Below are positions 7,345 to 25,724 of a stretch of DNA of 61,532 nt, in pieces. This DNA is from Thermoleophilaceae bacterium. GTDB taxonomy: Bacteria > Actinomycetota > Thermoleophilia > Solirubrobacterales > Thermoleophilaceae. A model generated the notes under the pieces. It searched no databases and was not told the DNA's origin. It worked only from the letters and a program-made list of their open reading frames with translations. The stretch is from NCBI GenBank assembly GCA_025937135.1, contig JAICRZ010000001.1:1-61532 (forward strand), written 5' to 3'. The translations under genes and the position numbers were made by a program. The first letter of the stretch is position 1; each line of letters starts with the position of its first letter.

Positions 7345-7382
7345 GCTGAGAGATTCCTCCGGAGGACTGGTGCGAAGCGACT

Positions 7383-8328: not shown

Positions 8329-8396
8329 TGGTGGGGATGGTCGCAGGATCGGCGTCGGGCGTCAGCGTTCGCGGCGCGATCTGCCAACGTTGGGGC

Positions 8397-8834: not shown

Positions 8835-8855
8835 CGGATCTCGGAACGGTCTTCG

Positions 8856-10031: not shown

Positions 10032-10080
10032 GAATGCTCCTTGTTACGGAAATCGGCGGCGGGAGGCGCGGGGGGCCTGA

Positions 10081-10108
10081 TTGACCCGTCAGTCAACGCC
10101 TGGGTCAA
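10081..10108. promoter_or_regulatory. TTGAC/GTCAA repeat cluster upstream of the acyl-CoA dehydrogenase gene (candidate operator)
   Basis: ttgacccgtcagtcaa (TTGAC-6nt-GTCAA) at 10081-10096, plus a third GTCAA at 10104-10108. Located 50-77 nt upstream of GTG 10031 on the minus strand. Confidence 0.3.
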
Positions 10109-10123
10109 GGGTAGTCGAGAACA

Positions 10124-10231
10124 TCAAAAAACGACGCGGATGAACACATAGACGCCGATTCCGATCGCTATCGCCGAAAGGAGCACGAGGCCCAGCTGCT
10201 CGGGGTACATCAGCGGTTTCGACGGGGCCAT
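10124..10231 (-). CDS. possible 35-aa hydrophobic micro-protein
   Basis: Not in the track because it is too short. The complement of 10229-10231 is ATG. Translation is MAPSKPLMYPEQLGLVLLSAIAIGIGVYVFIRVVF followed by TGA. It has one TM segment and mostly G/C third positions. Confidence 0.3.
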   Translation of the reverse strand: MAPSKPLMYPEQLGLVLLSAIAIGIGVYVFIRVVF

Positions 10232-10256
10232 CGTCCGCCGCCGTAAGCGTCGCCAC

Positions 10257-10712
10257 ATGCGGCAGACTGTACGCGTGGCAGACGCCTTTCCGATCGTGAT
10301 CATCGGGGTGTCGATCGCGGCGATCGCGGTGGCCGTCGTGGTCTCGCTCGCCAGCGGCGGGCTCTACGACCGGATCGGGCGCGGCGGGACGTTCGGCCTC
10401 GACACCGAGGGCGGCAGCGGTCGCCGCGGCCCCGCCCCGGGCAGCGCCGCCGCCCGCGCCGAGGCGGACGCGGAGATCCGCCAGCTCGTGGAGGCGAAGT
10501 CGGCGCGGCGCGTGGCCCGCGGTGAGGCGCCGCTCGACGTCGATGCCGAGATCGCCGCCCTCACGCAGCCGGCCGCCCCGGCCGACGCGGATCTGCGCGA
10601 GGAGGTTCGCCAGCTCGTGGTCGCGCGGAACGAGCGCCGCATGGCCCGCGGCCAGGAGCCGCTCGACGTCGAGACCGAGGTCGACCGCCAGCTCCGTGAC
10701 CTCGGCGGCTGA
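10257..10712 (+). CDS. membrane-anchored hypothetical protein with two tandem ~35-aa repeats
   Basis: N-terminal TM segment (FPIVIIGVSIAAIAVAVVVSLA). The repeats are EIRQLVEAKSARRVARGEAPLDVDAEIAAL and EVRQLVVARNERRMARGQEPLDVETEVDRQL. Confidence 0.6.
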   Translation: MRQTVRVADAFPIVIIGVSIAAIAVAVVVSLASGGLYDRIGRGGTFGLDTEGGSGRRGPAPGSAAARAEADAEIRQLVEAKSARRVARGEAPLDVDAEIAALTQPAAPADADLREEVRQLVVARNERRMARGQEPLDVETEVDRQLRDLGG

Positions 10713-10723
10713 CGATTCCACGT

Positions 10724-10751
10724 TTGTTACCCCTCGGCTTTCGGCTATAGA
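10724..10751 (+). promoter_or_regulatory. sigma-70-like promoter (TTGTTA-16nt-TATAGA) 8 nt upstream of ATG 10760; leaderless
   Basis: Read directly from the sequence. Confidence 0.45.
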
Positions 10752-10759
10752 TACCGGCA

Positions 10760-11092
10760 ATGGCTAACGATCGGCAGTACGAACTCGAGGATCTGGTCAA
10801 CCGGCCCGGCACCTACTTCAACCCGCAGACCGAGGTGATGGTCGTGGTCGACGACTCCCCGTCGCTCGACACCGAGATCTTCAACCTCGAGGAGTTCGAG
10901 GGCGCGGACTGGATCCTGATCTCCGACGATCTGCCGGTCGACGAGGCGCAGCGCGACGAGATGATGGAGACCTTCCAGGCCCGTCACCACGGCGGCGACG
11001 GCCGCGCGGTCGGGGTCGACCCGGAGACGGACGAGCCGGTCGACGAGGAAGAGGAAGAGCCGCCTCCGCCGGTCATAGACGAGCCTTCCTAG
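10760..11092 (+). CDS. hypothetical acidic protein
   Basis: 110 aa with good GC3 and an acidic tail (DEPVDEEEEEPPPP). The ATG lies 8 nt after a TTGTTA-16nt-TATAGA promoter-like element. Confidence 0.6.
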   Translation: MANDRQYELEDLVNRPGTYFNPQTEVMVVVDDSPSLDTEIFNLEEFEGADWILISDDLPVDEAQRDEMMETFQARHHGGDGRAVGVDPETDEPVDEEEEEPPPPVIDEPS

Positions 11093-11118
11093 GCCGTCTG
11101 TAGGGTCCAGGGCGCTCC

Positions 11119-12204
11119 GTGCGGCCCGTCTACTACCTCTCCGCGTTCATCCCGATTGCGGTCGCGCTGGACATCGCGCACGCGTCCGCGCCGCTGATCT
11201 TCTTCGCGTCGGCGATCGGCGTGATCCCCACCGCCGCGCTGATGAGCGACGCCACCGAGCAGCTCGCCGCGCGCTCCGGGCCCGGCATCGGCGGGCTCCT
11301 GAACGTGACGTTCGGCAACGCCCCCGAGCTGATCATCGCGTTCTTCGCCCTGCTCGAAGGGCTCCAGGAGGTCGTGAAGGCGTCGCTCGTGGGCAGCGTG
11401 CTCGGCAACTCGCTGCTCGTGCTCGGCGCGTCGATGCTCGCCGGCGGCTGGAAGCGCGAGAAGCAGACCTTCAACCGCACCGCGGCGCACACGCAGGCCG
11501 GCATGCTGCTCCTGGCCGCAGGCGCGCTGATCATGCCCGCGATCTTCCAGCTCGTGCACGGCGGCGGGCTGCCGCGCGTGGGCGAGGAGCGCCACCACTT
11601 CTCCCCCGACATCAACCACCTGTCGCTCGGCGTCGCGATCGTGCTGATCATCAGCTACGTGGTGGGGCTCTGGTTCTCGCTGCGCACGCATCGCGACGTC
11701 TTCAACGTCGGTCACGACAGCGAGGCCGAGACGCCGACCGGCACGTGGACCACGCGCAAGTCGGTGCTCCTGCTGGCGATCGCCGGTGTGCTCGTGGGCG
11801 TGATGAGCGAGATCCTGGTCAGCTCGATCGAGGACGCGTCGAAGGACATCGGGCTGTCGCAGTTCTTCGTCGGGGTGTTCATCGTGGCGATCGTCGGCAA
11901 CGCGGCGGAGCACTACGTGGCCGTGGTGGTCGCCATGAAGAACAAGATGGACCTGGCCGTGAACATCGCGATCGGGTCGAGCGCGCAGATCGCGCTGTTC
12001 GTCGCGCCCGTGCTGGTGCTGCTGTCGTTCGGGTTCGGCAAGTTCCCGATGGCGCTCGTGTTCAACGGCTACGAGCTCGCCGGCCTCGTGACGGCGGTGC
12101 TGATCGCCAACTTCCTCGCGTCCGAGGGCGAGTCAACGTGGTTCGAGGGCGTGCAGCTCCTCGCGCTCTACGCCGTCCTCGGGCTCGTCTTCTTCTTTGC
12201 GTAG
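11119..12204 (+). CDS. Ca2+/H+ antiporter (CaCA/CAX family)
   Basis: Two alpha-repeat signatures, GNAPELIIA and GNAAEHYVAV. About 10-11 TM segments. GTG start. Confidence 0.88.
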   Translation: MRPVYYLSAFIPIAVALDIAHASAPLIFFASAIGVIPTAALMSDATEQLAARSGPGIGGLLNVTFGNAPELIIAFFALLEGLQEVVKASLVGSVLGNSLLVLGASMLAGGWKREKQTFNRTAAHTQAGMLLLAAGALIMPAIFQLVHGGGLPRVGEERHHFSPDINHLSLGVAIVLIISYVVGLWFSLRTHRDVFNVGHDSEAETPTGTWTTRKSVLLLAIAGVLVGVMSEILVSSIEDASKDIGLSQFFVGVFIVAIVGNAAEHYVAVVVAMKNKMDLAVNIAIGSSAQIALFVAPVLVLLSFGFGKFPMALVFNGYELAGLVTAVLIANFLASEGESTWFEGVQLLALYAVLGLVFFFA

Positions 12205-13068: not shown

Positions 13069-13578
13069 ATGACAGCCGCACAGGTAGCCTCGGCCGCCGT
13101 GGCAGACCCTGCACGCTGGTACGTACCCATCCGCGACCACGAGCGGTTGCTCGCGTGGCTCGTGGGCATCCAGGCGACAGGACCGCTGGGCCGGCTGATC
13201 CATGCGCTGCTCGCGCTGCGCGGCACCGACATCCACGAGGCCGTGCGGCCCGGTCGGGGGCTGCGACTGCCGCACGCGGGGATCGGCGTGGTGGTGCATC
13301 AGGACACGCGGATCGGCCGGAACGTGACGATCTACAGCAACGTCACGGTCGGTCGCGCCGATCCCTGGCGCGCCTACCCGCGCCCGTTCGGCGGGATCGA
13401 CATCTGCGACGAGGCGATCCTCTGCTCCGGGGCAGCCGTGCTCGGCCACGGCGCCGAGCCGCTGGTGGTGGCGGAGGGGACCGTGGTGGGCGCCAACTCG
13501 GTCCTGACCGAGTCGACCGGGCCCTGGGAGATCTGGGCCGGCGCGCCTGCCCGCAAGGTGGGCGAGCGCGAGAGGTAG
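13069..13578 (+). CDS. hexapeptide-repeat (left-handed beta-helix) acetyltransferase, serine-acetyltransferase-like
   Basis: Hexapeptide-type repeats (GIGVVVHQDTRIGRNVTIYSNVTVG, ICDEAILCSGAAVLG, VAEGTVVGANSVL). Start is uncertain: ATG 13069 is preferred over ATG 13039 because 13040-13068 is AT-richer and only 12 nt from the divergent TerC start. Confidence 0.75.
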   Translation: MTAAQVASAAVADPARWYVPIRDHERLLAWLVGIQATGPLGRLIHALLALRGTDIHEAVRPGRGLRLPHAGIGVVVHQDTRIGRNVTIYSNVTVGRADPWRAYPRPFGGIDICDEAILCSGAAVLGHGAEPLVVAEGTVVGANSVLTESTGPWEIWAGAPARKVGERER

Positions 13579-13619
13579 GCCCGCTCGCGCAAGTCGATTC
13601 CCGCGCGTGGCGAGCGGGC
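13579..13619 (+). terminator. GC-rich hairpin directly after the acetyltransferase stop
   Basis: GCCCGCTCGC (13579-13588) pairs with GCGAGCGGGC (13610-13619), leaving a 21-nt loop. No T-tract follows. Confidence 0.3.
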
Positions 13620-13655
13620 GGAAACGCTGGTACGTTCGGCCGGGGAGCGCCGACG

Positions 13656-15092
13656 ATGCCATCGCCCAGCGAGAACGACGCCACGACGCTGGTCAAGGTA
13701 CGCAACACGGCGATGCTCGCCGCCGTGTCCGCGCTCGAGACGACCGTGCCGCACTGGCCGCTGCCGGTGGTCGAGCGGATCGGTGCGCGCCGGATCGCGT
13801 CGATCATCCGCTGGGCATACGACACCGTGCCCTTCTACGGCAAGGCGATGCGCTCGGCGGGTCTCGTGCCCGGCGACTTCCGGCGCCCCGAGGACCTCGC
13901 CCGGCTGCCGCTCATCGACGGCGACCGCGTGCAGGACGACATCGAGAGCTTCCTCTCGACCGCGATCCCGCGCAGCGGGCGGAAGGGCTTCCACACGAGC
14001 GGCTCGACCAGCGGCATGCGCCGGCTCGTCTTCTGGGACGACCACGCGCTGCTGATGAAGGCGGCCCGCAGCCAGCGCGACCGGCTCGTGGTCAACCGCC
14101 TCGCGGCGGAGCGCACTCTCGCGTCGATGCTGCGGGAGTTCGCGGGCGAGGGAAACGCGTCCTGGCAGCGCGCGCTCGCGCGTGTGGCCGGGGACCGGGC
14201 CGACCACCAGCGCCTCTCGATCATCCCGGCCGACTACTCGAGCCGCACGCAGCGCACGTTCTGGAGCCAGTGGTCGTTCGTGCCCGCCCGCGCGGGCCAC
14301 TACAGCCTGCTCTCCCCCAGCGAGCCCTACCCCGCAGCCGCCGACAGGCTCGATGCCATGCGACCGCGCGTGGTGTTCTCGTACGGCTCCTACGCCGACG
14401 AGTTCCTCCGCTACATCGACACCAGCGGCCGCACGGTCGCGCTGCCGCGGCTGTGGGTCTACATGGGCGACAGCGTGGGCGTGCGCGGCCGTGAGCTAGC
14501 GCGCAGCCTCGGCTGCCACCTGTACTCGGTGTACACGTCGATGGAGGCGGGCGCGATCGGATTCCAGTGCGAGCGCTGCGAGGGCTTCCACCTCAACGTG
14601 GACATCTGTGCAGTGCGCGTGGCCGGCGACGACGGCGCAACGCTGCCGGCCGGCGAGACCGGCGACATCGTCGTGTCGAACCTGGAGAACCGCGGCATGG
14701 TGCTGCTGAACTACCGCCAGGGCGACCGCGGCGCGCTGGCCACCGCGCCCTGCCCCTGCGGGCGCCGGCTGCCGCTGCTCGAGCGTCTGGAGGGGCGGCG
14801 CTCCGACGTGGTCACGGCAGCCGACGGCCGACGGCTGTCCGCGCTCAACCTCGAGGGACTGTTCCGCCACGAGCTGAAGCACGTGACCCAGTGCCAGCTC
14901 CACCAGCCGCGGCCGGGCACGATCACGTGGCGGCTCGTGACCGCGGCCGGAGTCGACCGCGACACCCTGCGCGCCGCGGTGGTCGAGCGCGGCCGCAGCG
15001 TGCTGGGCGAGGACACGGAGGTGCGCGTGGAATTCACCGACCGGATCGAGAAGACCGCGCGCGGCAAGCTGCTGCGGGTGGCGCCGGCTTGA
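13656..15092 (+). CDS. CapK / coenzyme F390 synthetase-like adenylate-forming enzyme (PaaK superfamily)
   Basis: In frame inside track ORF 13155-15092. Start is ATG 13656 (MPSPSEND...). Contains VPFYGKAMRSAGLVPGDFRRPEDLARLPLIDGD and the TSGSTSG P-loop-like motif, with a C-terminal ...KTARGKLLRV. Confidence 0.78.
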   Translation: MPSPSENDATTLVKVRNTAMLAAVSALETTVPHWPLPVVERIGARRIASIIRWAYDTVPFYGKAMRSAGLVPGDFRRPEDLARLPLIDGDRVQDDIESFLSTAIPRSGRKGFHTSGSTSGMRRLVFWDDHALLMKAARSQRDRLVVNRLAAERTLASMLREFAGEGNASWQRALARVAGDRADHQRLSIIPADYSSRTQRTFWSQWSFVPARAGHYSLLSPSEPYPAAADRLDAMRPRVVFSYGSYADEFLRYIDTSGRTVALPRLWVYMGDSVGVRGRELARSLGCHLYSVYTSMEAGAIGFQCERCEGFHLNVDICAVRVAGDDGATLPAGETGDIVVSNLENRGMVLLNYRQGDRGALATAPCPCGRRLPLLERLEGRRSDVVTAADGRRLSALNLEGLFRHELKHVTQCQLHQPRPGTITWRLVTAAGVDRDTLRAAVVERGRSVLGEDTEVRVEFTDRIEKTARGKLLRVAPA

Positions 15093-16144
15093 CCCGCCGA
15101 GCGCTGATGGCGGCGGCCGGCCTGCTGCCGGCCGCGCTCGCAGGCACCTGGGCCGCGGCGCTCGCCTATGGACGACGCGCGCAGCGCCGTACGCCCGGCC
15201 CGGGAGACGGAACGCTTCTGGTGTTCGGCGCCGGGCTCATGCGATGGGGTCCACGCGCCGGCCGCCCCACGCCCCTGCTCCAGGCTCGCCTCGACCGGGC
15301 CGCCGCCCTGTTCAGGGCGGGGGCCGCCCGCAGCGTGTCGTGCTCGGGCGGCCCGGAGGAAGTGGAGGCGATGCGCGGCAGCCTGGAGGAGGCCGGCGTC
15401 CCGGCGGCGGCGATCGAGGTCGACCCACAGGGCCTGAACACGGAACTGACGCTGGCGAACGCCGCGGCCCGAGCCACACGGCTCATCGCCGTGACCTCGC
15501 GCAACCACGCCCTGCGCGTGCTGCTCGAGTCCAGGCGGCAGGGGCTCGACGTGACGGTGTGCGCGGCCGCCGCCACGCCTGCACGAGGTCCGCTGCGGTG
15601 GCGCGTTCGTGACGGCCTTCGCGAGCTGCTGGCCCTGTGGTGGTACGCGGCCCGGTCGGCGGCTGGTCAAAGCCTCTTCGATCGCGTCCCGTGGCCGTGG
15701 CTGCCGATCCTGTCCCGGCGCGACCGCATGCTCGCCCGCGTGCCGGGGCGCCCGGATCCGTTCATCACGATCGACCGCTTCTCGCGGACGCTCCGCGTGT
15801 ACAGCGGCGGCAGGGTGGCCCGCGCCTATCGCGTCGGCGTGGGCACCGTCGGCAGGCGCACGCCGAGGGGCGAGTTCCTGATCGAGAACAAGCTCGTGGA
15901 CCCGGTCTGGCACGTGCCCGACAGGCCGGGCTTCGGCGCCCTCGCGGGCACCGCCCTGCCGGCCGGCGATCCGCGCAACCGGATCCGCGCCCGCTGGCTG
16001 GGCGTGTACGGGCCGGTGGGAATCCACGGCACCTCCGACGCGCGGCCCACTCGCCCGTCCCATGGCTGCGTAAAGATGTCCGAGGCCGACGTGGTCGATC
16101 TCTACGAACGCGTGCCCGATGGGACACCGGTCGTCATCGGCTGA
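15089..16144 (+). CDS. DUF218 (YdcF/SanA-like) domain fused to L,D-transpeptidase (YkuD) catalytic domain
   Basis: In frame inside track ORF 14567-16144. TTG 15089 overlaps the upstream stop (TTGA); an alternative ATG is at 15107. N-terminal anchor RRALMAAAGLLPAALAG. DUF218-like region LLVFGAGL...SCSGG...NTELTLANAA...AVTSRNHALRV. YkuD active-site motif IHGTSDARPTRPSHGCVKM. Confidence 0.8.
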   Translation: MTRRALMAAAGLLPAALAGTWAAALAYGRRAQRRTPGPGDGTLLVFGAGLMRWGPRAGRPTPLLQARLDRAAALFRAGAARSVSCSGGPEEVEAMRGSLEEAGVPAAAIEVDPQGLNTELTLANAAARATRLIAVTSRNHALRVLLESRRQGLDVTVCAAAATPARGPLRWRVRDGLRELLALWWYAARSAAGQSLFDRVPWPWLPILSRRDRMLARVPGRPDPFITIDRFSRTLRVYSGGRVARAYRVGVGTVGRRTPRGEFLIENKLVDPVWHVPDRPGFGALAGTALPAGDPRNRIRARWLGVYGPVGIHGTSDARPTRPSHGCVKMSEADVVDLYERVPDGTPVVIG

Positions 16145-16925
16145 CACTCACGGGTCCGGCTACTGGGACGCGGTCGGCGTCAGCTGGACCGACGAGCCGA
16201 CCGACCCCCTCTGGCGCGCCCATACGGACGCTGTGTACGCCAGGTTGATGGAACGCCGGCTGCCGCGTCACTACAGGCGCGCACTCAAGACCGACCTGTT
16301 CGACGAGGCCGTGGCCGCGGGGTTCGGCGACTCGATCGCGCGGCGGTCGGATGCGCTCGTGGGCATCGACACCTCGGCTGCGGTGCTGGCCCGCGCCGCG
16401 GCGCGCAGCCCGGACCTCGAGACGGTGATGGCGGACGTGCGCGCGCTGCCATTCGGCGACAGGGAGTTCGACCTCGTGGTGTCGCCGTCCACGCTCGACC
16501 ACTTCGGCGCGCCCGGCGACCTGCGCCGGGCGCTGCTCGAGCTTGCGCGCGTGCTCGAGCCGGGCGGCACGCTCCTCCTGACCCTGGACAACCTCGCGAA
16601 CCCGCTCGTGGCCCTTCGCAACGCGCTGCCCTTCGAGCTGCTGAGGCGATCGCGCCTGGTGCCGTATTTCGTGGGCGCGAGCCTCGGTCCGCGCCGGCTC
16701 AGGCGGCTGCTGGACGAGTGCGGCTTCGAGGTGACCGCCGCGGAGGCGATCGTGCACGTGCCGCGCGTGCTCGCGGTGCTTGCGGCCCGGGTGGTCGAAC
16801 GACGGGGCGGGCCGCGCGCGCAGCGGCGTCTGGGTGCCGTGCTGATGCGCTTCGAGGCGCTGGAGCGCCTGCCCACCCGCTTCCTGAGCGGGCACATGGT
16901 GGTGGCGGTGGCGACCCGGCGCTGA
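16119..16925 (+). CDS. class I SAM-dependent methyltransferase
   Basis: LVGIDTSAAVLARA (motif I region), ALPFGDREFDLVVS, LEPGGTLLLT. Confidence 0.8.
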   Translation: MGHRSSSADTHGSGYWDAVGVSWTDEPTDPLWRAHTDAVYARLMERRLPRHYRRALKTDLFDEAVAAGFGDSIARRSDALVGIDTSAAVLARAAARSPDLETVMADVRALPFGDREFDLVVSPSTLDHFGAPGDLRRALLELARVLEPGGTLLLTLDNLANPLVALRNALPFELLRRSRLVPYFVGASLGPRRLRRLLDECGFEVTAAEAIVHVPRVLAVLAARVVERRGGPRAQRRLGAVLMRFEALERLPTRFLSGHMVVAVATRR

Positions 16926-16936
16926 AGCGCTGCGCG

Positions 16937-18343
16937 CTAGCGCGCCCGGAACTTCACCGACGGCGAGGCCGCCGCTCCACCGCACCCGGAGCGCACCCGG
17001 GCGACCGCCCGGTAGGTGCCCCGGCGCAGCCGCACCGTCCGCGAGAAGCGGCCGTTGGCGCGAGCCCGGATGTGCAGCCTGCGCGTGTGCGCCCAGCGGC
17101 CGCCGCGCTTTCGGTGGCGCAGCGCCACCGCCACCTGGCCGGCGCAGCCCGGCCGGATCGCACCCCAGACCTTGGCGCGCGCTGCGCGGCGCGCCCTGAC
17201 GTGGACCCTGACGCGGCGCTTCACGCCGGCCGGCACGGCCGTGCCTTCCGGGGCGGGGCGCGCCGGCGGCGCGGGGGCAGGAGCCGGCGGCGCGGTGTAC
17301 GGGCCGGTGTTCCAGGCCCGCAGCGTGTCCTCGGCCGGCTTGCCGCGCACGCTGAACTCGCCGTCGGAGGGGTCGTAGCCGCCGGCGGCGCTCCAGTCCC
17401 ACCAGTAGATCCCCCGGAACCACGGCACCCCCGACCACGCGCGGAACGCGGCCTCGTAGGCACGCTGCTGCGCGTCGGCGGACACCGCGCCGTTGGTCCA
17501 CCAGGGAGTCTGCGCCGTGCCGGTGCGGCTCTGGTAGCCGAGCTCGGTGAAGATCACGGGCTTGCCGGTGCGGGCGCTCAGCTTGCCGAGGTCGCTCACG
17601 TAGCCGCGCTGCCACCACGCCGCGGTGAGGTCGTCCACGCTGGGATCGGCGCCCGCGGCGGCCAGCGGCATGTAGGCGTCGACGCCGATGAAGTCGAGGG
17701 CGTCCCAGAAGCCGATGCGGAGGGCGCCGTCGAGCTGGTTGGCGGCGAACGTGAGCCGGCCGCTGAAACGGGCCCGGGCGACGTCGACGATCCGGCGCCA
17801 TTCGGCCGTGTCGGACGACATGCTGGTGAGCTCGGTGCCGACCACGAGCATCGTCGCGCCGCCGCGCGCCGCGAGGTCCGCGTAGTGGTCGATCATCGTC
17901 CGGTAGTCGGTGTACCAGGCGTCGCGGTCCGCGGGGGCGATGTCGCCGCGGAAGCTTCCGTCGAACACGTCGACGTGCGGCTTCACGACCACGTCCATGC
18001 CCAGGGCGCGAGCGGTCGCCATGGCTCGCAGGAGGCCGGCATCACTCGCCGTCTTGGTGGCGTTGGGCTGTACGGAGGAGTCGGTGGAGGTGTTCATCCA
18101 CCAGGTGGGCACGAGCTCGACCGAAGTGGTGCCGGTCGCGCGCAGCGCGGCGAGCGAGGCGTCGCTCGGCGCCTTCTCCCAGTCGTCGTGCCACCACGAG
18201 GCCACGTTCATCCCCCGCTGCCAGTCGGGGGGCAGACCTGCCGCGGAGGCGCCGGCGGCGGGTGCCGCGAGCGCGCAGGCGAAAACCGCCGCAAGGATCG
18301 CGACGAACTTCCGACCGGCCGCCTGGCGGAAGCGGGGAGCCAT
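16937..18343 (-). CDS. exported TIM-barrel glycoside-hydrolase-like protein (paralog 1) with Pro-rich linker and Arg-rich C-terminal domain
   Basis: Signal peptide KFVAILAAVFACALAAPAAGASA. Clan GH-A-like candidate catalytic Glu in VVGTELTSM and IFTELGYQS. Shares KPHVD, TFAAN and WDALD.IG.DAYMPL with ORFs 18467-19519 and 21002-22039. Confidence 0.75.
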   Translation of the reverse strand: MAPRFRQAAGRKFVAILAAVFACALAAPAAGASAAGLPPDWQRGMNVASWWHDDWEKAPSDASLAALRATGTTSVELVPTWWMNTSTDSSVQPNATKTASDAGLLRAMATARALGMDVVVKPHVDVFDGSFRGDIAPADRDAWYTDYRTMIDHYADLAARGGATMLVVGTELTSMSSDTAEWRRIVDVARARFSGRLTFAANQLDGALRIGFWDALDFIGVDAYMPLAAAGADPSVDDLTAAWWQRGYVSDLGKLSARTGKPVIFTELGYQSRTGTAQTPWWTNGAVSADAQQRAYEAAFRAWSGVPWFRGIYWWDWSAAGGYDPSDGEFSVRGKPAEDTLRAWNTGPYTAPPAPAPAPPARPAPEGTAVPAGVKRRVRVHVRARRAARAKVWGAIRPGCAGQVAVALRHRKRGGRWAHTRRLHIRARANGRFSRTVRLRRGTYRAVARVRSGCGGAAASPSVKFRAR

Positions 18344-18466
18344 CCCGCCGGTGTCGTCGCCGGCCGCGGAACGGGACAGCCGGGACCGGCGATCCTGGAC
18401 GCATTTGCGACAGATCCAGCCAAATGGAGGCTGGCGCGGCCGCCGTAACTGGGCTATAGGTAGGCA

Positions 18467-19519
18467 GTGGCCTCAGCGAAGCCAGCCGTGTTTGCAGCAC
18501 TGCTCGCATGCGTCTGCGGCGTGGCCGCGGGGCCCGCGCAGGCCAAGCCGCGGCCGGTGCCGTTCATGCGCGGAGTCACGCTGGGCACGTGGGGCTCCGC
18601 GGGATACGCCCCCGCCGCCACGCGCGCGCAACTGCGCCGGCTGCGGGCCCGCCACGTGGACACCGTGACGCTGCTGGTGTCATGGGGCCAGTCCGGCAAG
18701 ACATCCACCACGGTCGCGCCCAACTCCGGCACCGTCCCCACCCCCGCTCTCGCGACTGCGATTCGCTCTGCCCGCAAGCTCGGCATGAAGGTCGTGCTAC
18801 GCCCCTACGTCGATCCGCTCGACGGCACCTGGCGCGGGTTGATCGAGCCGCGCTCCGTGAACGCCTGGTTCCGGAGCTACGACCGCTTCATCCTCAGCTA
18901 CGCCTCGCTGGCGCGGCGCGAGCACGTGCGCGGCTTCGTCGTGGGCAGCGAGATGTCCTCGCTCGCGCGCTACTCCGCGCAGTGGCGTTCACTGGTGGGC
19001 AAGGTGCGCCACCGCTTCCGCGGCTTCGTCACCTACCAGGCCAACTGGTACCTCGAGCCGGTCGGGATCAACTGGTGGGACGCGGTCGACGCGATCGACG
19101 TGTCGGCCTGGTACGAGCTCACCGACAAACTCAACCCGACCGTATCCGAGCTCGTGCAGAGCTGGACCAGCACGAGCAACGGCCTGGGCGTGAACTGGTT
19201 CGCCCAGGTGCGCGGCCTCCAGCACACCTGGAACCGGCCGGTGATGTTCGGCGAGATCGGCTATCGAGCCTCGGCCGACACCGCGGCCCACCCGTGGGAG
19301 CTCGATAGCCCCTCCGGCGTGCCGGCCAGCGCCGCAGCTCAGCGGCGCGCGTACGAGGCTGCCTTCCGCGTCTGGTACGGCCAGCCGTGGTTCAAGGGCT
19401 TCGACTGGTGGTACGTACCGGCACCCGGCGCGCCGCCGCGCAGCTCGCCGAGCGGCGCACACCAACTGACAGCGGGACTGCTGCGTCTCATCAGCCGGCG
19501 CTACGGGGGGAAGAGATGA
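18467..19519 (+). CDS. exported TIM-barrel glycoside-hydrolase-like protein (paralog 2)
   Basis: GTG start 6 nt after TATAGG. Signal peptide AVFAALLACVCGVAAGPAQA. Motifs VVGSEMSSL, MFGEIGYRAS, WWDAVDAIDVSAWYEL. Confidence 0.75.
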   Translation: MASAKPAVFAALLACVCGVAAGPAQAKPRPVPFMRGVTLGTWGSAGYAPAATRAQLRRLRARHVDTVTLLVSWGQSGKTSTTVAPNSGTVPTPALATAIRSARKLGMKVVLRPYVDPLDGTWRGLIEPRSVNAWFRSYDRFILSYASLARREHVRGFVVGSEMSSLARYSAQWRSLVGKVRHRFRGFVTYQANWYLEPVGINWWDAVDAIDVSAWYELTDKLNPTVSELVQSWTSTSNGLGVNWFAQVRGLQHTWNRPVMFGEIGYRASADTAAHPWELDSPSGVPASAAAQRRAYEAAFRVWYGQPWFKGFDWWYVPAPGAPPRSSPSGAHQLTAGLLRLISRRYGGKR

Positions 19520-20997
19520 CGCTGGACATGGAGTTCCGGGCCGGCGAGGCCACGCCGGGCAATCCGGTCGAGACCGCAATCCTGGGCGGCGGTCCCGCAG
19601 GCCTCACCGCCGCTTACGTCCTGGCCCGCCGCGGCAGGCGCGGCGTGGTCTTCGAGGCCGGCAAGCAGGTGGGCGGCATCGCGCGCACCGAGCGCCGCAA
19701 CGGCTACCGCTTCGACCTGGGCGGGCATCGGTTCTTCACGAAGCTCGCCCCGGTGCAGCGGCTGTGGGAGGAGGTGCTGGGCGAGGAGCTGCTCAAGCGT
19801 CCGCGCCTGTCGCGCATCTTCTTCGACGGCAAGTACCTGAGCTACCCGCTCACGTCGAAGGACGTGGTGTCGCGCCTCGGGATCGTCGAGTCCACCCGCT
19901 GCGCTCTGTCCTACATGTGGGCCCTGCGCAAGCGCGGCGGCAACCCGGAGACGTTCGAGGAGTGGGTCACCTCGCGGTTCGGCGTTCGCCTGTACGAGAC
20001 GTTCTTCCGCACCTACACCGAGAAGGTCTGGGGCATCCCGGGCTCCGAGATCCGCGCGCAGTGGGCCGCCCAGCGGATCAAGGACTTCTCGCTGTTCATG
20101 GCCATGCTCTCGATCCTCAAGCTGCGCCGCCGCACGGTCACGACCCTGATCGAGGAGTTCCACTACCCGCGGCTCGGCCCGGGCCAGATGTGGGAGGCGT
20201 TCGAGGAGCGCGTCGAGGAGGCGCGCATCCCGGTGCTCAAGCGGCACCGCGCCGAGACCCTGCGCCACCGTGACGGCCGCATCACGAGCATCGTCGTGGA
20301 GAGCGACGGCGCCCGCACCGAGCACATCGTCGACGGCGTGCTGTCGAGCATCCCGCTGCGCGAGCTCGTGCTCTCGCTCGAGCCCGCGGCGCCGCCGCAC
20401 GTCACAGCTGCGGCGCGCAAGCTGCAGTACCGCTCGCTCTGCCTGGTAAGCCTGATGACCACCGAGGCGGAGCCCTTCCCCGACAACTGGATCTACCTGC
20501 ACGACCCGGGCGTGCGTGCCGGCCGTGTGCAGAACTTCGGCGCGTGGAGCGAGTCGATGGTCAAGCCCGGCACCACCTGCCTCGGGGTCGAGTACTTCTG
20601 CTTCGAGGGCGACGACATCTGGGAGATGCCGGAGGCGGAGGCCGTCGCGCTGGCACGCGACGAGCTGGCCCGGATCGGGCTCATCGACCCCAGCAAGGTG
20701 TTCGACGGCACCAAGACCTACGTTCCCAAGGCGTACCCGGTCTACGACTCTCCGTACGAGGACGCGGTCGCGGTGCTGCGCGAGTACCTGGCCGGCTTCA
20801 CGAACCTCCAGACGTTCGGCCGCAACGGCCTGCACCGCTACAACAACCAGGACCACTCGATGTGGACGGCCATCCTCGGGACGCTGAACCTGCTCGACGA
20901 CGCGGGCCACGACGTCTGGTCCGTGAACACCGAAGCCGAGTATCACGAGGAGGGCGAGGCCGTCGAGGAGCTCCTCGACCTCCAGCTCGTGAGTTGA
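19516..20997 (+). CDS. NAD(P)/FAD-dependent oxidoreductase (amine-oxidase / UDP-galactopyranose-mutase-like fold)
   Basis: ATG 19516 overlaps the upstream stop (ATGA). It lies in frame inside track ORF 19387-20997. Dinucleotide-binding motif AILGGGPAGLTAAYVLA...VFEAGKQVGG, followed by GGHRFFTK. Confidence 0.8.
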   Translation: MTLDMEFRAGEATPGNPVETAILGGGPAGLTAAYVLARRGRRGVVFEAGKQVGGIARTERRNGYRFDLGGHRFFTKLAPVQRLWEEVLGEELLKRPRLSRIFFDGKYLSYPLTSKDVVSRLGIVESTRCALSYMWALRKRGGNPETFEEWVTSRFGVRLYETFFRTYTEKVWGIPGSEIRAQWAAQRIKDFSLFMAMLSILKLRRRTVTTLIEEFHYPRLGPGQMWEAFEERVEEARIPVLKRHRAETLRHRDGRITSIVVESDGARTEHIVDGVLSSIPLRELVLSLEPAAPPHVTAAARKLQYRSLCLVSLMTTEAEPFPDNWIYLHDPGVRAGRVQNFGAWSESMVKPGTTCLGVEYFCFEGDDIWEMPEAEAVALARDELARIGLIDPSKVFDGTKTYVPKAYPVYDSPYEDAVAVLREYLAGFTNLQTFGRNGLHRYNNQDHSMWTAILGTLNLLDDAGHDVWSVNTEAEYHEEGEAVEELLDLQLVS

Positions 20998-21001
20998 TGC
21001 G

Positions 21002-22039
21002 CTACTGCGGCGGCGCTCCATTCCAGCGCCGCAGAACCCGCTCCGCCGCCCTGCCCCCCGGGTCGAACTCGTCTCCGGACGCGGGCTCGCGGGCGGGCCA
21101 GTCCCACCAGAGGATGCCGCGCACCCACGATTGCCGCGACCAGACGCGGAGGGCCGCCTCGTAGGCGCGGGCCTGGGCCGAGGCGCTGCGGCGCCCGCGT
21201 GGCTGCGCCGGATCGGCCGCGGCGCCTGTCCTGCTGCCGTAGCCGATCTCGGTGAACAGCACGGGCTTGCCGGCTGCCCGGCGGATCGCGTCGATGCTCG
21301 ACACGTAGGGCTGCCAGGCGCGGACGAGCTGCTCGACGGTCGGGTCGGCGGCGGCGGTGCGCAGCGGCATGTAGGCGTCGATCCCGATCGCGTCGAGCGC
21401 GTCCCAGAAGCGGACGGCGCGCGCTCCCTCGTCCCAGTTGGCCGCGAACGTGAGTGTGCCCCTGAAGCGGCTCCGCACCTGCGCGACCAGCGCGCGCCAG
21501 CGGTTCTCATACCGCGTCATGCTGCTCAGCTCGGTTGCCACCACGAACGTCGTCGCACCCCCGCGCTGGGCCAGCGAGGCGTAGTGGAGCACCATCCGCC
21601 CGTAGCTCGCGAACCACGCGGGCACCGAGGCCGGCGCTATCTCTCCGCGGAACACGCCGCTGTCCACATCCACATGGGGCTTGACGATCACCTCGAGACC
21701 GAGCGCGCGAGCGCGCCGCATGGCGACCAACAGGCTCGTGTCGGTGGCGGTTCGCGCCGCGTCGGGCTCCACGCTCGAGGAGCGGGAGTCGCGCATGTAC
21801 CAGTAGGGGTCGAGCGCCACCGCGCGGGTGCCGGTGGCGGCCAGGGCCCTCAGCGACCGCCCCGCCGCGGGGCGGGCGTAGCCGCCCGCGGTGAAGGACG
21901 TGAAGTTCATGCCGCGCACCCAACCGCTCGGCAGCAGCGCGCGCCGCGGCTCGGGCGCCGCCCGGCGGCCCCCGCCGCCGCACCCGGCCACCGCCGCCGC
22001 GACGATCGCCCAGACAGCCAGGGCGCGCATGGCGCTCAC
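21002..22039 (-). CDS. TIM-barrel glycoside-hydrolase-like lipoprotein (paralog 3)
   Basis: Lipobox AAVAGC. Motifs VVATELSSM, LFTEIGYGS, KPHVD, TFAANW, FWDALDAIGIDAYMPL. GTG 22039 or ATG 22030 as start. Confidence 0.75.
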   Translation of the reverse strand: MSAMRALAVWAIVAAAVAGCGGGGRRAAPEPRRALLPSGWVRGMNFTSFTAGGYARPAAGRSLRALAATGTRAVALDPYWYMRDSRSSSVEPDAARTATDTSLLVAMRRARALGLEVIVKPHVDVDSGVFRGEIAPASVPAWFASYGRMVLHYASLAQRGGATTFVVATELSSMTRYENRWRALVAQVRSRFRGTLTFAANWDEGARAVRFWDALDAIGIDAYMPLRTAAADPTVEQLVRAWQPYVSSIDAIRRAAGKPVLFTEIGYGSRTGAAADPAQPRGRRSASAQARAYEAALRVWSRQSWVRGILWWDWPAREPASGDEFDPGGRAAERVLRRWNGAPPQ

Positions 22040-22053
22040 GGGGTGGACGCTCC

Positions 22054-23811
22054 GTGACCGGGGGCGAGACCTGGACGGCCCCGTGGGGCGGTGCGGAGCG
22101 CACGCTCAGCCGCCGGCAGGTGGCGGCCGCCGCGCTCGTGGCGCTGGCCTGCGTGGCGGGCGTGGTGGCATGGGGAGCGGCGACCGTGCTCGCCGTCATC
22201 GTCGGCCTGGCGACGCTGCTGTTCGCGTCCACCACGTATCTGCGCCTGGCATACCTGTTCGCCGGCCGTCGCAGCAGCGGCGAAGGAGCGCTGCTCGCAG
22301 CCGCACCGCTCGGCGCGCCGCTGCCCCGCTACACCGTGATGGCGGCCCTCTACCACGAGGCCGCCGTGGTGCAGGGCCTCCTCGAGTCGCTCGCGCAGCT
22401 GGACTACCCCGCCGACCGGCTCGAGGTGCTGTTGCTGGTGGAGCACGACGACCCGGAGACCGAGGCGGCCTGCCGGGCCCACCTGCGCCCCGGCTGGTCG
22501 GTGGTGGTGGTGCCCCCCGGTGTCCCCCGCACGAAGCCACGCGCCCTCAACCACGGGCTCGGCCACACCACCGGGGAGTTCTTCACGATCTACGACGCGG
22601 AGGACCGGCCCGACGCCGATCAGCTCCTCAAGGCGGTGAGCGAGTTCCGCCGGCTCCCGCAGAGCGTCGCCGCACTCCAGGCGCGCCTCGACTTCTACAA
22701 CTCGCGCCAGAACGCGCTCACGCGCTGGTTCACATGCGACTACGCGACGCACTTCGGCCTGCTGCTGAGCGGGATCGCGCACCATCGCCACCCCCTGCCG
22801 CTCGGAGGCACCTCCACCCACTTCCGCACCGACGTGATCCGCCGCGTGGGCGGGTGGGACGCCTGGAACGTGACCGAGGACTGTGAGCTTGGGATGAGGC
22901 TCGCCGCCGCCGGCTTCGTCTCGCTCCGCCTGGCCTCGGTGACCATGGAGGAGGCCGTGCCGAGGCTCCGGCCCTGGGTGCGCCAGCGCTCGCGCTGGGT
23001 GAAGGGCTACGCCCAGACGGGGTTGCAGATCACGAGGGCGCCGGTACGTTCCGCGCGCGCGATGGGACTGCGCCCCTACCTGTCCGCACTCGGGATCGTG
23101 GCTGCCGCGCCGGTCGCGCTCGTGGCGCAGATCGTGTTCTGGGCAGTGCTCGCGGTCTACGTGGTGCTGCGCGTATCGGGCGCCGACGTCTCGCCGATCG
23201 AGCGCGTCTTCCCCGAGCCCCTGCTCACGCTCGGGATGGTGTCGCTGATCGTCGGGAACTTCGTGGTCCTCGCCGCTCACGTGGCTGAGATCTACCACCT
23301 CCGGCGGCACGACCTCGTGGCATACGCAGTCGCCATGCCCATCTACTGGACGCTCGCGTCGATCGCGGCCTGGCGCGGTGTGCTCCAGCTCCTCTGGAGC
23401 CCGCATTTCTGGGAGAAGACCGAGCACGGCATGGGCGGCGCCGCGGACGTGGGCCACCTGCCGGCGGCGGTCCTGTCGCCGTCGCGCACCGCGCCACCTC
23501 GCGACGGTGGGGCGGTCCTGGAGCTGCTCGTGCGACACGGGCGCACCTACCCCGAGCTGGCCGTGGTGCTGGGCCTGCCGGAGGCCGAGGTGCGGCGCCT
23601 CGCGCTCGAGGCTCTCGACAGGCTCCACGCATTCGGCGACAGCCGCGTCGAGCCGGAGTGGTACGCGCCCCTGGCCGACTACGTCCTCGGTCAGGACGCG
23701 GGCAGCGGCGAGCTGGCCGACCACCTCGAGCGCGCCCCGGACGCGCGCGCATGGGTGGCCTCCGTCAGGCGCGAGCTCGAGCGGAGCTACCGCGCCGGAG
23801 GCGGCGAATGA
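22054..23811 (+). CDS. processive family-2 glycosyltransferase (synthase type) with C-terminal sigma-70 region-4-like / anti-sigma-like module
   Basis: GTG start and two N-terminal TM segments. GT2 synthase motifs YDAEDRP, VTEDCELG and QRSRWVKG (QxxRW), followed by 3-4 TM segments. The C-terminal ~99 aa read LELLVRHGRTYPELAVVLGLPEAEVRRLALEALDRL...LADYVLGQ. Confidence 0.88.
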   Translation: MTGGETWTAPWGGAERTLSRRQVAAAALVALACVAGVVAWGAATVLAVIVGLATLLFASTTYLRLAYLFAGRRSSGEGALLAAAPLGAPLPRYTVMAALYHEAAVVQGLLESLAQLDYPADRLEVLLLVEHDDPETEAACRAHLRPGWSVVVVPPGVPRTKPRALNHGLGHTTGEFFTIYDAEDRPDADQLLKAVSEFRRLPQSVAALQARLDFYNSRQNALTRWFTCDYATHFGLLLSGIAHHRHPLPLGGTSTHFRTDVIRRVGGWDAWNVTEDCELGMRLAAAGFVSLRLASVTMEEAVPRLRPWVRQRSRWVKGYAQTGLQITRAPVRSARAMGLRPYLSALGIVAAAPVALVAQIVFWAVLAVYVVLRVSGADVSPIERVFPEPLLTLGMVSLIVGNFVVLAAHVAEIYHLRRHDLVAYAVAMPIYWTLASIAAWRGVLQLLWSPHFWEKTEHGMGGAADVGHLPAAVLSPSRTAPPRDGGAVLELLVRHGRTYPELAVVLGLPEAEVRRLALEALDRLHAFGDSRVEPEWYAPLADYVLGQDAGSGELADHLERAPDARAWVASVRRELERSYRAGGGE

Positions 23812-25724
23812 CCCCGGAGGCGGTGCGCGACCGGGGCCGGCTCGTGGTCGAGCTGGTGCGCTCGCACGGGCGTTCCTACTCGGAGGTCGCCCGTGTGACC
23901 GGGATGAGCGAGGATGCCGTGCGAGACATGGCGCGCCGGTCGCTCGAGTCCGCCGCGCCGAGCGGCCAGGCATGCCCGGACCCGGAGCTGCGCGGCGCGC
24001 TGGCCGACTACGTACTGGGCCAGAGCACCCCGGTCGAGGAGCAGAGCGCACGCGAGGCGCTGGCTCGGTCGGCCGACGCGCGCCAGTGGGTCGATTCCCT
24101 GCGCGCCCCCGCGCCAGAGGTGGAGGCACGGCAGCCGAGCCGGCGCCGCCGGCTCGCGACACGCATGCGAGCCGCGAGGGTCCACTGGCCACTCTGGGCG
24201 ATGCTCACCGTCGCGCTGGGTGCTCTCGTGGCGACCGCCGTCTTCGTGTCGGACCGCGGCCAGATCCTCGGCTTCGACGACTCGCCGCGGCACGTGATCA
24301 TCTCGCTGCGCACGCTCACCGAGGGCATCCGGCAGCTCGGCACCCACTGGACCCCGCTCTTCCACGTGGTCGAGCTTCCGTTCGTGTGGATCAATCCCCT
24401 CTACCGGACGGGATTGAGCGGCACCGTGGTCTCCGTGCTCGCGTCGCTCGTGACGCTCTTCTGCGTGTACCGCCTGGCCCTGCTGCTGGACGGGCGGCGC
24501 TGGATCGCGACGGCCGCCGCGCTGCTGCTGGTGGCAAGCCCCAACTTCCTGCTGGCCGGCGTGATCCCGATGCAGCCTTCGGTGATCATGGCGTCCACGA
24601 CGGCCGCGGTGTACCTGTTCACCCGCTGGGCCACCCAGGGCCGGCACACCCGGCAGCTCGTGGTGGCGGGCTTCGCCCTCAGCGTCGCCACCTTGTCGCA
24701 CTTCGACGCGTGGCCGCTGCTGCCGCTCGAGATCGGGGCCGCCGCCCTCGTGATCTACATGCACCGGCGCGATCGCACCCACGCGACCGCAACCGGGCTC
24801 GTCCTGCTCGTGTGCGGCGGCTACGGCGTGGCGGTCTTCATCGCGTTGAACGTGCTCGTCTTCGGGCTGCCCACCGCCTTCCTCCACGAGAACGACATCA
24901 AGCTCGGAGGCTCCTCGCCCGGCGGGACGGGGTTCACTCCGCCGCGCGGCGGCGACGGGGTGGCCGCGTACCCGCTCGCGAGCTGGCACGTGGCGGGACC
25001 GGTGCTGGCCGTCGCGGGCCTGATCGGCGTGCTCGTCTTCATCTGGCGCTCCCGACGCTCACCGGCGACGCTCACGGCACTGATCCTCTTCTACCCGCTC
25101 GTCTGGTACACGGCGCAGGCGCTCACGAAGGGCAGCTACATCGTCGCCGGGCACCGCCTCCAGGACTGGACGCACCTGCGCTACGCGATCCCGATCCTGC
25201 CCGCCCTCGCGGTGTTCGCGGCCGTGGGATCGCGCTGGCGAGTGGTGGCCACCGCGCTGGTGGTGGGCGTCGCGGCCGTCTCCACCGTCACCGTCCTCCA
25301 CGGCCAGGTGGCGGGATGGGTGGACATGACGGGCGAGTCGGGCAAGATCGACAGCGTCGGGATGCGCCCCGCGGCGGCCTGGCTCAGAGCGAACATAGGC
25401 GAGGGCCGAGGGCGTGCCTGGATCCCCAATTTCGACCCCGACAACGACCGCTTCGAGCTGCTCACCGGCGTTCCGCCGGACCAGTTCGTCGACACGAACG
25501 CCACCGAGACCTGGCGCCTGCTCAACCGCGAGCCGTGGCTCGTCGACAAGCTGGGCGTGCACTGGATCATCCGCGTCGGCCAGCTCAAGCAGCCGAACTT
25601 CCCGCTGGCGATCCTCGGGACCGGCGCGCGCCGCTGCTGGTACTCGCACCCGAACGCGCGCGCCTCGGTGCAGATCTACACGATCGACTACTCCTGCCCG
25701 CCCGTCCCGCCGCAGTACCGCTGA
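23808..25724 (+). CDS. GT-C fold membrane glycosyltransferase (PMT/ArnT-like) with N-terminal sigma-70 region-4-like / anti-sigma-like module
   Basis: ATG 23808 overlaps the GT2 stop (ATGA). It lies in frame inside track ORF 23658-25724. N-terminus VELVRSHGRSYSEVARVTGMSEDAVRDMARRSLESA...LADYVLGQ. This is followed by ~10 or more TM segments, with an FDD motif right after TM1 and a C-terminal soluble domain. Confidence 0.75.
   Translation: MTPEAVRDRGRLVVELVRSHGRSYSEVARVTGMSEDAVRDMARRSLESAAPSGQACPDPELRGALADYVLGQSTPVEEQSAREALARSADARQWVDSLRAPAPEVEARQPSRRRRLATRMRAARVHWPLWAMLTVALGALVATAVFVSDRGQILGFDDSPRHVIISLRTLTEGIRQLGTHWTPLFHVVELPFVWINPLYRTGLSGTVVSVLASLVTLFCVYRLALLLDGRRWIATAAALLLVASPNFLLAGVIPMQPSVIMASTTAAVYLFTRWATQGRHTRQLVVAGFALSVATLSHFDAWPLLPLEIGAAALVIYMHRRDRTHATATGLVLLVCGGYGVAVFIALNVLVFGLPTAFLHENDIKLGGSSPGGTGFTPPRGGDGVAAYPLASWHVAGPVLAVAGLIGVLVFIWRSRRSPATLTALILFYPLVWYTAQALTKGSYIVAGHRLQDWTHLRYAIPILPALAVFAAVGSRWRVVATALVVGVAAVSTVTVLHGQVAGWVDMTGESGKIDSVGMRPAAAWLRANIGEGRGRAWIPNFDPDNDRFELLTGVPPDQFVDTNATETWRLLNREPWLVDKLGVHWIIRVGQLKQPNFPLAILGTGARRCWYSHPNARASVQIYTIDYSCPPVPPQYR

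Follow-up and report, generated by a model that had tools for sequence, protein, structure and literature searches.

Textbook accounts treat two kinds of enzyme separately: processive glycan synthases, working alone in the membrane on nucleotide-sugar donors, and glycosyltransferases of the GT-C type, whose donors are lipid-linked and whose site of action is the outer face. Examples of three-component extracytoplasmic glycosylation are ArnC/ArnT and CsbB/YfhO. The GtrA/GtrB/GtrC form of that scheme appears in the available part of a paper on Actinoplanes (PMC13390465), which there concerns clusters other than the one considered here. In C. difficile 630, a four-part set comprising a family GH113 glycoside hydrolase, WecB, a DUF2334-type protein and a GT2 glycosyltransferase has been predicted, in the section of Scott et al. 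that covers it, to form a system for a polymer rich in N-acetylmannosamine (ManNAc) (PMC7710045). The product is read there, as a prediction only, as being of the (N-acetyl)mannosamine or mannose type, and this remark in the accessible part of PMC7710045 was the only association of GH113 with a glycosyltransferase or exopolysaccharide operon in the literature searched. Here, we describe a six-gene glycan locus at positions 16937-25724 of a 61,532-nucleotide stretch (the window; positions 1 to 61,532, forward strand, of contig JAICRZ010000001.1, assembly GCA_025937135.1) from a Thermoleophilaceae bacterium. The source assembly, which we call G000, is a metagenome-assembled genome (MAG) of 2.97 Mb in 273 contigs. 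The locus encodes three GH113 paralogs, a flavoenzyme, a membrane GT2 and a GT-C transferase (Table 1). An earlier note on this DNA had described a compact six-gene block with two ATGA couplings, and both features are present: six open reading frames (ORFs), with a GC content at third codon positions (GC3) of 0.90-0.96, and overlaps at 19516-19519 (paralog 2/flavoenzyme) and 23808-23811 (GT2/GT-C). Long ORFs overlapping on both strands are numerous in the window, whose GC content is 72%; all six ORFs are coding, given their GC3 against this background.

The cluster probably builds and trims a surface sugar polymer. The reading that we favor, with a probability of roughly 0.55, is that it encodes an outward-facing glycan assembly machine, in which a processive GT2 resembling BcsA and HAS works with an ArnT-like GT-C. 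This reading starts from observed family and fold assignments, conserved catalytic residues, a GT2::GT-C fusion and recurrent glycoside hydrolase partners; its statements on processivity, on the donor and the acceptor, on which sugar is used and on how the GH113 enzymes share the work are deduced from sequences and models, as follows. The GT2 would polymerize a β-linked chain from a nucleotide sugar and thread it through the membrane. At the outer face, the GT-C would act on the emerging chain with a polyprenyl-phosphate sugar, so as to branch, extend or attach it. The three exported GH113 proteins (one lipid-anchored, one free and one basic-tailed) would cut or transglycosylate the product, and the co-transcribed flavoenzyme, which resembles UDP-galactopyranose mutase (UGM), would, in this genus, provide the furanose donor. 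For the backbone, the β-mannoside type, i.e., mannose or ManNAc, would be most likely, because of the specificity of GH113, the position of PcManGT as the sole solved relative of the GT2, and the existence of sister gene sets containing WecB.

The GT2 + GT-C pair is the real conserved core, often a single protein, of which GH113 is a recurrent but optional partner. In a same-genus genome (G001, a MAG that is 72% complete), the GT2 (62% identity) and GT-C (55% identity) are joined via an Ala/Pro-rich linker in a single ORF of 1045 amino acids. The order in G001 is flavoenzyme, a small GT2 on the opposite strand and then the fusion, with Wzx-like, phosphodiesterase and GT4 genes upstream. A 315-residue plus-strand ORF called between the G001 flavoenzyme and the fusion was rejected, being in the wrong frame; the real gene is that of the minus-strand small GT2. 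We also fetched 80 metagenomic loci, each with a GT-C relative at 22-40% identity. A member of this GT2 family lay within the fetched flanks of 30 of them, in the order GT2→GT-C in 28, and in 18 of the 30 both domains occupied one stop-free frame. Among the 51 loci with at least 1.8 kb of upstream sequence, the GT2 was upstream of the GT-C in 25. The neighborhood survey proposed in the earlier note found that the pairing recurs, and that it is fused in G001 and in 18/30 of the metagenomic loci. The fusion of the same GT2/GT-C pair in many uncultured bacteria is new here: no description of the pairing, or of the gene set, was found in the literature searched, in which subscription journals were mostly uncovered.

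Domain architectures were scanned in the proteins of at least 700 amino acids (n = 44) among the best 150 of 1,443 GT-C representatives (E ≤ 1e-30). A synthase-type GT2 was N-terminal to the GT-C in 14: alone in 11, followed by a C-terminal GH113 in one, and preceded by a second GT2 in two. The latter (P0012, 1471 amino acids, and P0072, 1511 amino acids) contain, within a single chain, a GT2 of the Glycos_transf_2 type, then the synthase-type GT2 and then the GT-C. The others had GtrA_DPMS_TM plus GT2 (five), GtrA (one) or Glycos_transf_2 (six) joined to the GT-C, a GT-C::GH5 arrangement (four: P0051, P0057, P0080 and P0111) or no added Pfam domain (14). In a tree of the GT2 family (82 rows, quick mode), the window and G001 proteins paired with 100% support inside a group of other GT-C-linked GT2s, and linkage to GT-C, a label carried by 14 rows, required two changes, a number as low as which was seen in 0/500 shuffles.

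The GT2 carries DAED at residues 181-184, TED at 274-276, QRSRW at 311-315 and WxKTxHG at 453-459; DAED, TED, QRxRW and the C-terminal WxKTxHG were invariant in an alignment of 82 sequences, and the QxxRW synthase signature reported in the earlier note is thus present. An AlphaFold2 model of the protein had a confidence score (pLDDT) of 92.9. With Foldseek, its best matches were BcsA (E. coli and Rhodobacter), the hyaluronan synthases (HAS) CvHAS, of a Chlorella virus, and XlHAS1, of Xenopus, PcManGT, yeast Chs1 and CesA, the top 27 being BcsA, HAS, PcManGT or Chs1, with TMq values of ~0.6 for BcsA and CvHAS and 0.5 for XlHAS1, PcManGT and Chs1. At the sequence level, the only solved relative was PcManGT (3e-11), a mannosyltransferase by its PDB title. 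By its motifs and fold, the GT2 is a synthase-type membrane enzyme, which is predicted to be processive. It scored 42 bits against the CelA model, far under the cut-off of 699, and 44.3 bits against the PgaC_IcaA model, under the cut-off of 422.

Some relatives of the GT2 have surroundings of interest in their own right. A close relative in a Thermoleophilia MAG (L005:7203-9314) has an N-terminal MshEN domain, which is of a type that binds cyclic di-GMP, and adjoins an MshE/T2SSE ATPase gene (L005:5336-7870), which suggests that this synthase is controlled by cyclic di-GMP. Two others have partners of the clan GH-A type: a Streptomyces rubellomurinus relative lies beside a GH5 gene (L021:548-2563), and a Sumerlaeota relative is fused to a long tail containing DUF5060 (L045:6852-10643), a PRK07208-like flavoenzyme being encoded on the opposite strand ~0.3 kb further downstream.

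The GT-C matched the PMT_2 profile above its cut-off of 26.1 bits, and its AlphaFold2 model (pLDDT 91.4) had ArnT (5f15/5ezm) as its top fold, followed by the oligosaccharyltransferases AglB/STT3 and by ALG12, DPY19 and AftB, in agreement with its earlier description as a GT-C transferase. Asp158, in the first outer loop, was invariant in 8/8 close and 52/52 wider relatives, while His162 was invariant in the 8 close relatives and nearly so in the 52 wider ones. By analogy of fold, the donor of this enzyme at the outer face is presumably a polyprenyl-phosphate sugar. DPMS-like genes (GtrA_DPMS_TM plus Glycos_transf_2) accompanied the GT-C in 12/80 metagenomic loci at E ≤ 1e-20, of which two had supplied the query, and in 18/80 at E ≤ 1e-8, where the weaker matches may be other GT2s. 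In NCBIfam these neighbors were nearest to ArnC, AglJ and PpgS, under the cut-offs. Together with the fused relatives, they suggest that the GT-C is fed by a separate lipid-sugar synthase, and that the QxxRW GT2 does another job. The same 80 loci gave no clue to a nucleotide sugar, as tblastn queries with WecB, DUF2334 and the epimerase were without a match in them. A search of 1.84 billion representatives with the GT-C profile gave 9,489 matches at E ≤ 1e-3, 3,400 at E ≤ 1e-10 and 1,443 at E ≤ 1e-30, and no studied member of this large family (1,443 representative clusters at the last threshold) was found within the reach of our searches. Few close relatives exist: among 5.8 billion proteins, a word-indexed search turned up eight, two of them being fusions, and in 300 other genomes of the class the body of the GT-C had no match, six genomes matching its N-terminal module only.

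An alternative, unlikely but better placed than those considered below, is extracytoplasmic glycosylation of the Gtr/Arn type, in which the GT2 would make and flip a polyprenyl-phosphate sugar or a short lipid-linked glycan and the GT-C would transfer it to a protein, lipid or wall polymer, the GH113 enzymes editing the transferred glycan or being unrelated. The title of PcManGT, the closest solved sequence relative of the GT2, is that of a mannosyltransferase rather than a polymer synthase, and the fold of the GT-C is nearest to ArnT, a single-sugar transferase; both would suit such a pathway, as would the fact that fusions of donor-maker to donor-user are common in the GT-C family (11/44 of the scanned proteins being DPMS- or Glycos_transf_2-type GT2::GT-C). 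However, the GT2 has the full set of processive motifs and is closest in fold to BcsA, HAS and Chs, and the endo-type clan GH-A partners (GH113 and GH5) are typical of polymer synthases. In addition, the two proteins with both kinds of GT2 ahead of the GT-C, and the separate DPMS-like gene beside the fusion in several loci, suggest that the two kinds of GT2 have different jobs.

The three putative hydrolases, which the earlier note had recognized as paralogs with a clan GH-A fold, are indeed related: paralog 1 shares 52% of its residues with paralog 3 and 37% with paralog 2. The family check suggested in that note gave GH113, a family of retaining β-mannanases/mannosidases, and hence clan GH-A, for all of them, with PF22612 scores of 173.3, 174.4 and 188.3 bits for a cut-off of 27. 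For every paralog, the best solved relative was the GH113 β-1,4-mannanase AaManA (4cd6/3civ; E = 2.5e-34, 8e-32 and 1.5e-33 for paralogs 1, 2 and 3), followed by 7dv7 and 5ylh. In all three, a pair of Glu residues (E171 and E267 in paralog 1) aligned with chain positions 151 and 231 of 4cd6, which, from the AaManA literature, we take to be the acid/base and the nucleophile. Both were invariant in 13/13 aligned GH113 proteins, distant relatives and fused ones included. With the pair kept as the earlier note had supposed, the paralogs are predicted to be catalytically intact. Its list of shared motifs held only in part. The nucleophile-Glu motif F[TG]E[LI]GY is common to all three, and most of the others are exact in paralogs 1 and 3, but paralog 2 deviates in three: it has RPYVD and TYQAN in place of KPHVD and TFAAN, and W rather than Y as the final residue of the WDA..D.I motif. 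The [VA][GT][ST]E.. pattern has a one-residue misfit in paralog 3 (VATE).

Each paralog has one hydrophobic N-terminal segment, from which, in line with the earlier note, an export signal is predicted for all three. Paralog 3 also has a VAGC lipobox and is probably the lipoprotein that it had been called. In paralog 1, the export signal is followed by the GH113 domain (residues 53-320), a Pro/Ala linker and a basic tail; its C-terminal 123 residues (16937-17305) contain 31 Lys plus Arg and one Asp plus Glu. This tail, which might bind an anionic wall polymer, had no family match, and a protein atlas search with it gave scores of 0.81-0.82, i.e., at the level of chance. In a GH113 tree of 30 rows, paralogs 1 and 3 were sisters (support 82/90), and paralog 2, the most divergent copy, sat on a long unresolved branch. 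No other GH113 gene of the 2.97-Mb assembly passed the Pfam cut-off. Among 301 sampled genomes of the class, 24 had GH113, mostly as a single copy, and none of the four from the window's own family did.

A link between GH113 and the glycosyltransferase pair was also seen elsewhere. GH113 genes occurred within the flanks of 7/80 metagenomic loci: immediately upstream of the fusion in L108, L110, L128 and L134, and downstream of the GT-C in L124. A triple fusion, GT2-GT-C-GH113, was found at L104:8234-12808 (1524 amino acids) and in protein P0017 (1377 amino acids). In the GH113 tree, six of these cassette copies formed a clade of their own (100/100), with the L124 copy outside it on a long unresolved branch. 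The separate GH113 clades indicate that GH113 joined the glycosyltransferase pair at least twice, independently, and this repeated recruitment argues for a functional tie. Within the window, an ATGA overlap couples paralog 2 to the flavoenzyme, an ortholog of which is in the G001 locus, and paralog 3 lies between the flavoenzyme and the GT2, at the position of the small GT2 in G001.

The surroundings of the GH113 genes of the class bear on a second alternative, that the trio are secreted β-mannanases that feed on plant mannan and lie beside an unrelated glycosyltransferase operon by chance. All of the solved GH113 relatives are titled β-1,4-mannanases, the window copies fall in the clade of the stand-alone GH113s of the class, and G001 has the glycosyltransferase genes without any GH113, all of which would fit. 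However, 15 class loci with GH113 were fetched, and in the 14 that gave ORFs, of which 70 of the 100 called were scanned, no sugar-uptake gene was found within ~4 kb of the GH113. Instead, four of the 14 had glycan-synthesis genes: L211 (contig C62 of G280, 6033-12130) combines GH113 with a WecB 2-epimerase, DUF2334 and a synthase-type GT2, and three others combine a PMT_2 GT-C with an epimerase, GH113 and GT4. In the window, the scanned flanks likewise contained no sugar transporter or regulator beside the GH113 genes; translational coupling joins one copy to the flavoenzyme, and another lies between the flavoenzyme gene and the GT2. As GH113 also adjoins or is fused to GT2::GT-C in independent lineages, we regard a feeding role as quite improbable. 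The option, raised in the earlier note, that the paralogs bind carbohydrate or act as carriers without being catalysts would fit their triplication with different anchoring (lipoprotein, free, basic-tailed) and the divergence of paralog 2, but is very improbable, given that all three score highly in Pfam (173-188 bits) and retain most family-invariant residues, together with the Glu pair that no aligned GH113 lacked.

The flavoenzyme, described in the earlier note as an FAD oxidoreductase, is a flavoenzyme as stated, but its relatives make it better read as a candidate sugar mutase. It matched NCBIfam NF005548 (PRK07208 type) above the cut-off, a family titled 'hypothetical protein' on which no paper was found in our literature search. 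Its best solved relatives were eukaryotic-type UGMs, from A. fumigatus and T. cruzi (1.3e-18, residues 14-229), the significant alignment being confined to the N-terminal 215 residues. Active-site roles have been assigned in A. fumigatus UGM (AfUGM), in the part of the paper available, to His-63, Arg-182, Arg-327, Tyr-453 and Asn-457 (PMC3322874). The residues aligned with His-63, Arg-182, Tyr-453 and Asn-457 are identical in the flavoenzyme, the C-terminal alignment not being significant alone. Its ortholog in the G001 locus is 77% identical. That it is a nucleotide-sugar pyranose/furanose mutase is, in our estimate, a little short of an even bet.

Several observations weigh against the assembly machine that we favor. 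For the flavoenzyme, the equivalent of the essential Arg-327 falls in an unaligned stretch, and the Pfam GLF domain had no match in this protein or anywhere in G000 or G001. For the donors, neither ManC nor WecB was found among the window ORFs scanned, the single WecB gene of the assembly being on a different contig; the ORF scans likewise revealed no DPMS-type GT2 or GtrA_DPMS_TM in the window, and profile comparison gave no DPMS-type assignment for the small GT2 of the G001 locus, a 75% identical ortholog of which lies on another contig of G000, beside arginyl-tRNA synthetase. For the hydrolases, the three window copies group with the stand-alone GH113s of the class and are not orthologs of the cassette copies; GH113 was not found in G001, G002 or G006, and its absence from G001, which has the fused GT2::GT-C, implies that the trio was added in this lineage and that position alone ties it to the locus here. 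Finally, the 80 closest relatives of the GT2 in species genomes had a nearby GH113 in one case, a GT-C in one and a flavoenzyme in one.

A broader form of the proposal, which is possible but at odds well below even, is that the window holds a split form of a widespread four-part machine, composed of a processive GT2, a joined ArnT-like GT-C, a lipid-sugar synthase supplying the latter and a clan GH-A hydrolase (GH113 or GH5). Such a machine would make a branched or hybrid polymer, the chain being glycosylated outside the membrane during extrusion. In this lineage the fusion would have been split, each half gaining a module that resembles sigma-factor region 4 and an anti-sigma helix. The two copies of this module, at residues ~480-582 of the GT2 and 1-118 of the GT-C, are 39-43% identical to each other, and each shows 36-43% identity with the N-terminal part of conserved single-pass proteins of the RskA_C type in related genomes. 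Those single-pass proteins carry Sigma70_r4 (8e-8) and RskA_C (1e-9), whereas the two glycosyltransferases do not classify as RskA-type anti-sigma factors, since they are without RskA_C and their Sigma70_r4 matches are under the cut-off. The module was absent from the fused GT2::GT-C proteins of G001 and of a metagenome. G000 has three strong copies, one on contig C90 and two at this locus. The duplicated module could link a sigma factor with polymer synthesis; the genome has 34 Sigma70_r2 matches, none on this contig. Alternatively, pairing of the two copies might keep the split halves in contact; a prediction of a complex between them scored 0.02 against a mark of 0.32, which gives no verdict. 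We also noted that 34 Sigma70_r2 matches is a high count for 2.97 Mb, and that a 583-residue frame on contig C81 of G000 (~9358-10668, minus strand), which has a weak module match (E = 4e-4) upstream of a GT2 domain (E = 2.9e-10), may be a second fusion in this genome of a helix-turn-helix module with a glycosyltransferase.

Table 1. Features of the glycan locus in the window
Feature	Position	Strand	Length	Supporting match
GH113 paralog 1	16937-18343	-	468 amino acids	PF22612, E 9.6e-51
GH113 paralog 2	18467-19519	+	350 amino acids	PF22612, E 4.4e-51
Flavoenzyme	19516-20997	+	493 amino acids	NCBIfam NF005548, E 9.1e-185
GH113 paralog 3	21002-22039	-	345 amino acids	PF22612, E 2.5e-55
Membrane GT2, predicted processive-synthase type	22054-23811	+	585 amino acids	Pfam Glyco_trans_2_3 + Glyco_tranf_2_3
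C-terminal cytoplasmic module of GT2 (sigma-70-region-4-like helix-turn-helix + anti-sigma-like helix)	23461-23808	+		
GT-C, ArnT-like	23808-25724	+	638 amino acids	PMT_2, 33.7 bits
Second copy of module, N-terminus of GT-C	23808-24182	+	~110 amino acids	as in GT2 C-terminus

The divergent starts of GH113 paralog 3 and the GT2 are ~14 bp apart (22039-22054), so either their promoters lie inside each other's coding sequences or the true starts are further in. The genes that flank the locus are unrelated to it. Upstream, a plus-strand run at 13155-16925, convergent on GH113 paralog 1, encodes a DVU_1553-like AMP-dependent CoA ligase, a DUF218-YkuD L,D-transpeptidase fusion and a DVU_1556-like methyltransferase; downstream are an SCO4651-like lipoprotein and then an ArsA-type ATPase. 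The methyltransferase (16119-16925) was considered as a member of the locus, as a methyltransferase gene is upstream of the GT-C-GH113 pair in L124, and was rejected, NCBIfam tying it to the DVU_1553-like ligase instead. A DUF218 gene also adjoins a GH113 gene in locus L218.

The locus couples the synthase and GT-C routes. In many uncultured bacteria one polypeptide combines them, and in some cases it includes the trimming hydrolase too. If the proposed mechanism is true, it would be a new way of making branched surface polymers, and the role of GH113 in vivo would be polymer biogenesis rather than feeding. The four-part machine, if real, would be a type of pathway between the synthase-dependent and the GT-C/lipid-donor routes, and the natural GT2-GT-C-GH113 triple fusion offers a compact construct for biochemistry and cryo-electron microscopy.

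The earlier note could match the locus to no named exopolysaccharide system, and this was upheld: when the six genes and their flanks were scanned against Pfam and NCBIfam, no part of the Bcs cellulose system (PilZ, BcsB or the GH8 enzyme BcsZ) or of the Pel and alginate systems was found, and no PgaB-type deacetylase of Pga/Ica was present among the window ORFs scanned. The closest described systems share some of its features. As in BcsA/BcsZ cellulose synthesis and the clostridial CcsA/CcsZ system (with a GH5), insofar as these are covered by the available part of PMC7710045, a membrane GT2 with D, DxD, TED and QxxRW and a BcsA-like fold is encoded alongside an exported hydrolase of the clan GH-A type. 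Unlike those systems, the window locus is without PilZ, BcsB, BcsC and GH8, the partner is a GT-C, often fused, and the hydrolase is GH113 and triplicated. The predicted C. difficile 630 locus (BcsA-like GT2, GH113, WecB and a CE4 deacetylase, according to the same section) resembles it in combining a synthase-type GT2 with GH113, and its four-gene set is matched by L211 from the class, whereas the window locus has a GT-C and the UGM-like enzyme instead of WecB or a deacetylase. The flavoenzyme has eukaryotic-type UGMs, as described in the available part of PMC3322874, as its best solved relatives (1e-18), with identical residues aligned at four of their active-site positions, but differs in giving no GLF match, in aligning significantly over its N-terminal 215 residues only and in lacking an aligned counterpart of Arg-327.

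With Gtr-type systems the locus shares an ArnT-like GT-C that presumably acts on a polyprenyl-phosphate sugar and whose relatives are fused to GtrA/DPMS-type GT2s; in contrast, the GT2 coupled to it here is of the polymer-synthase type rather than GtrB/DPMS, and there is no GtrA in the window. The BcsA-BcsG complex of E. coli, named in PDB titles among the Foldseek matches, is similar in placing beside the synthase a membrane enzyme that would modify the emerging chain from a lipid-borne donor. BcsG, however, is a phosphoethanolamine transferase and not a GT-C, and is not known to be fused to BcsA. Lastly, the paralogs align with AaManA and the other solved GH113 enzymes (4cd6, 3civ, 5ylh and 7dv7) at E-values of 1e-23 to 1e-34, with the catalytic Glu residues in register, but differ from these mannanases in carrying predicted export signals or a lipobox and in being encoded inside a glycosyltransferase locus.

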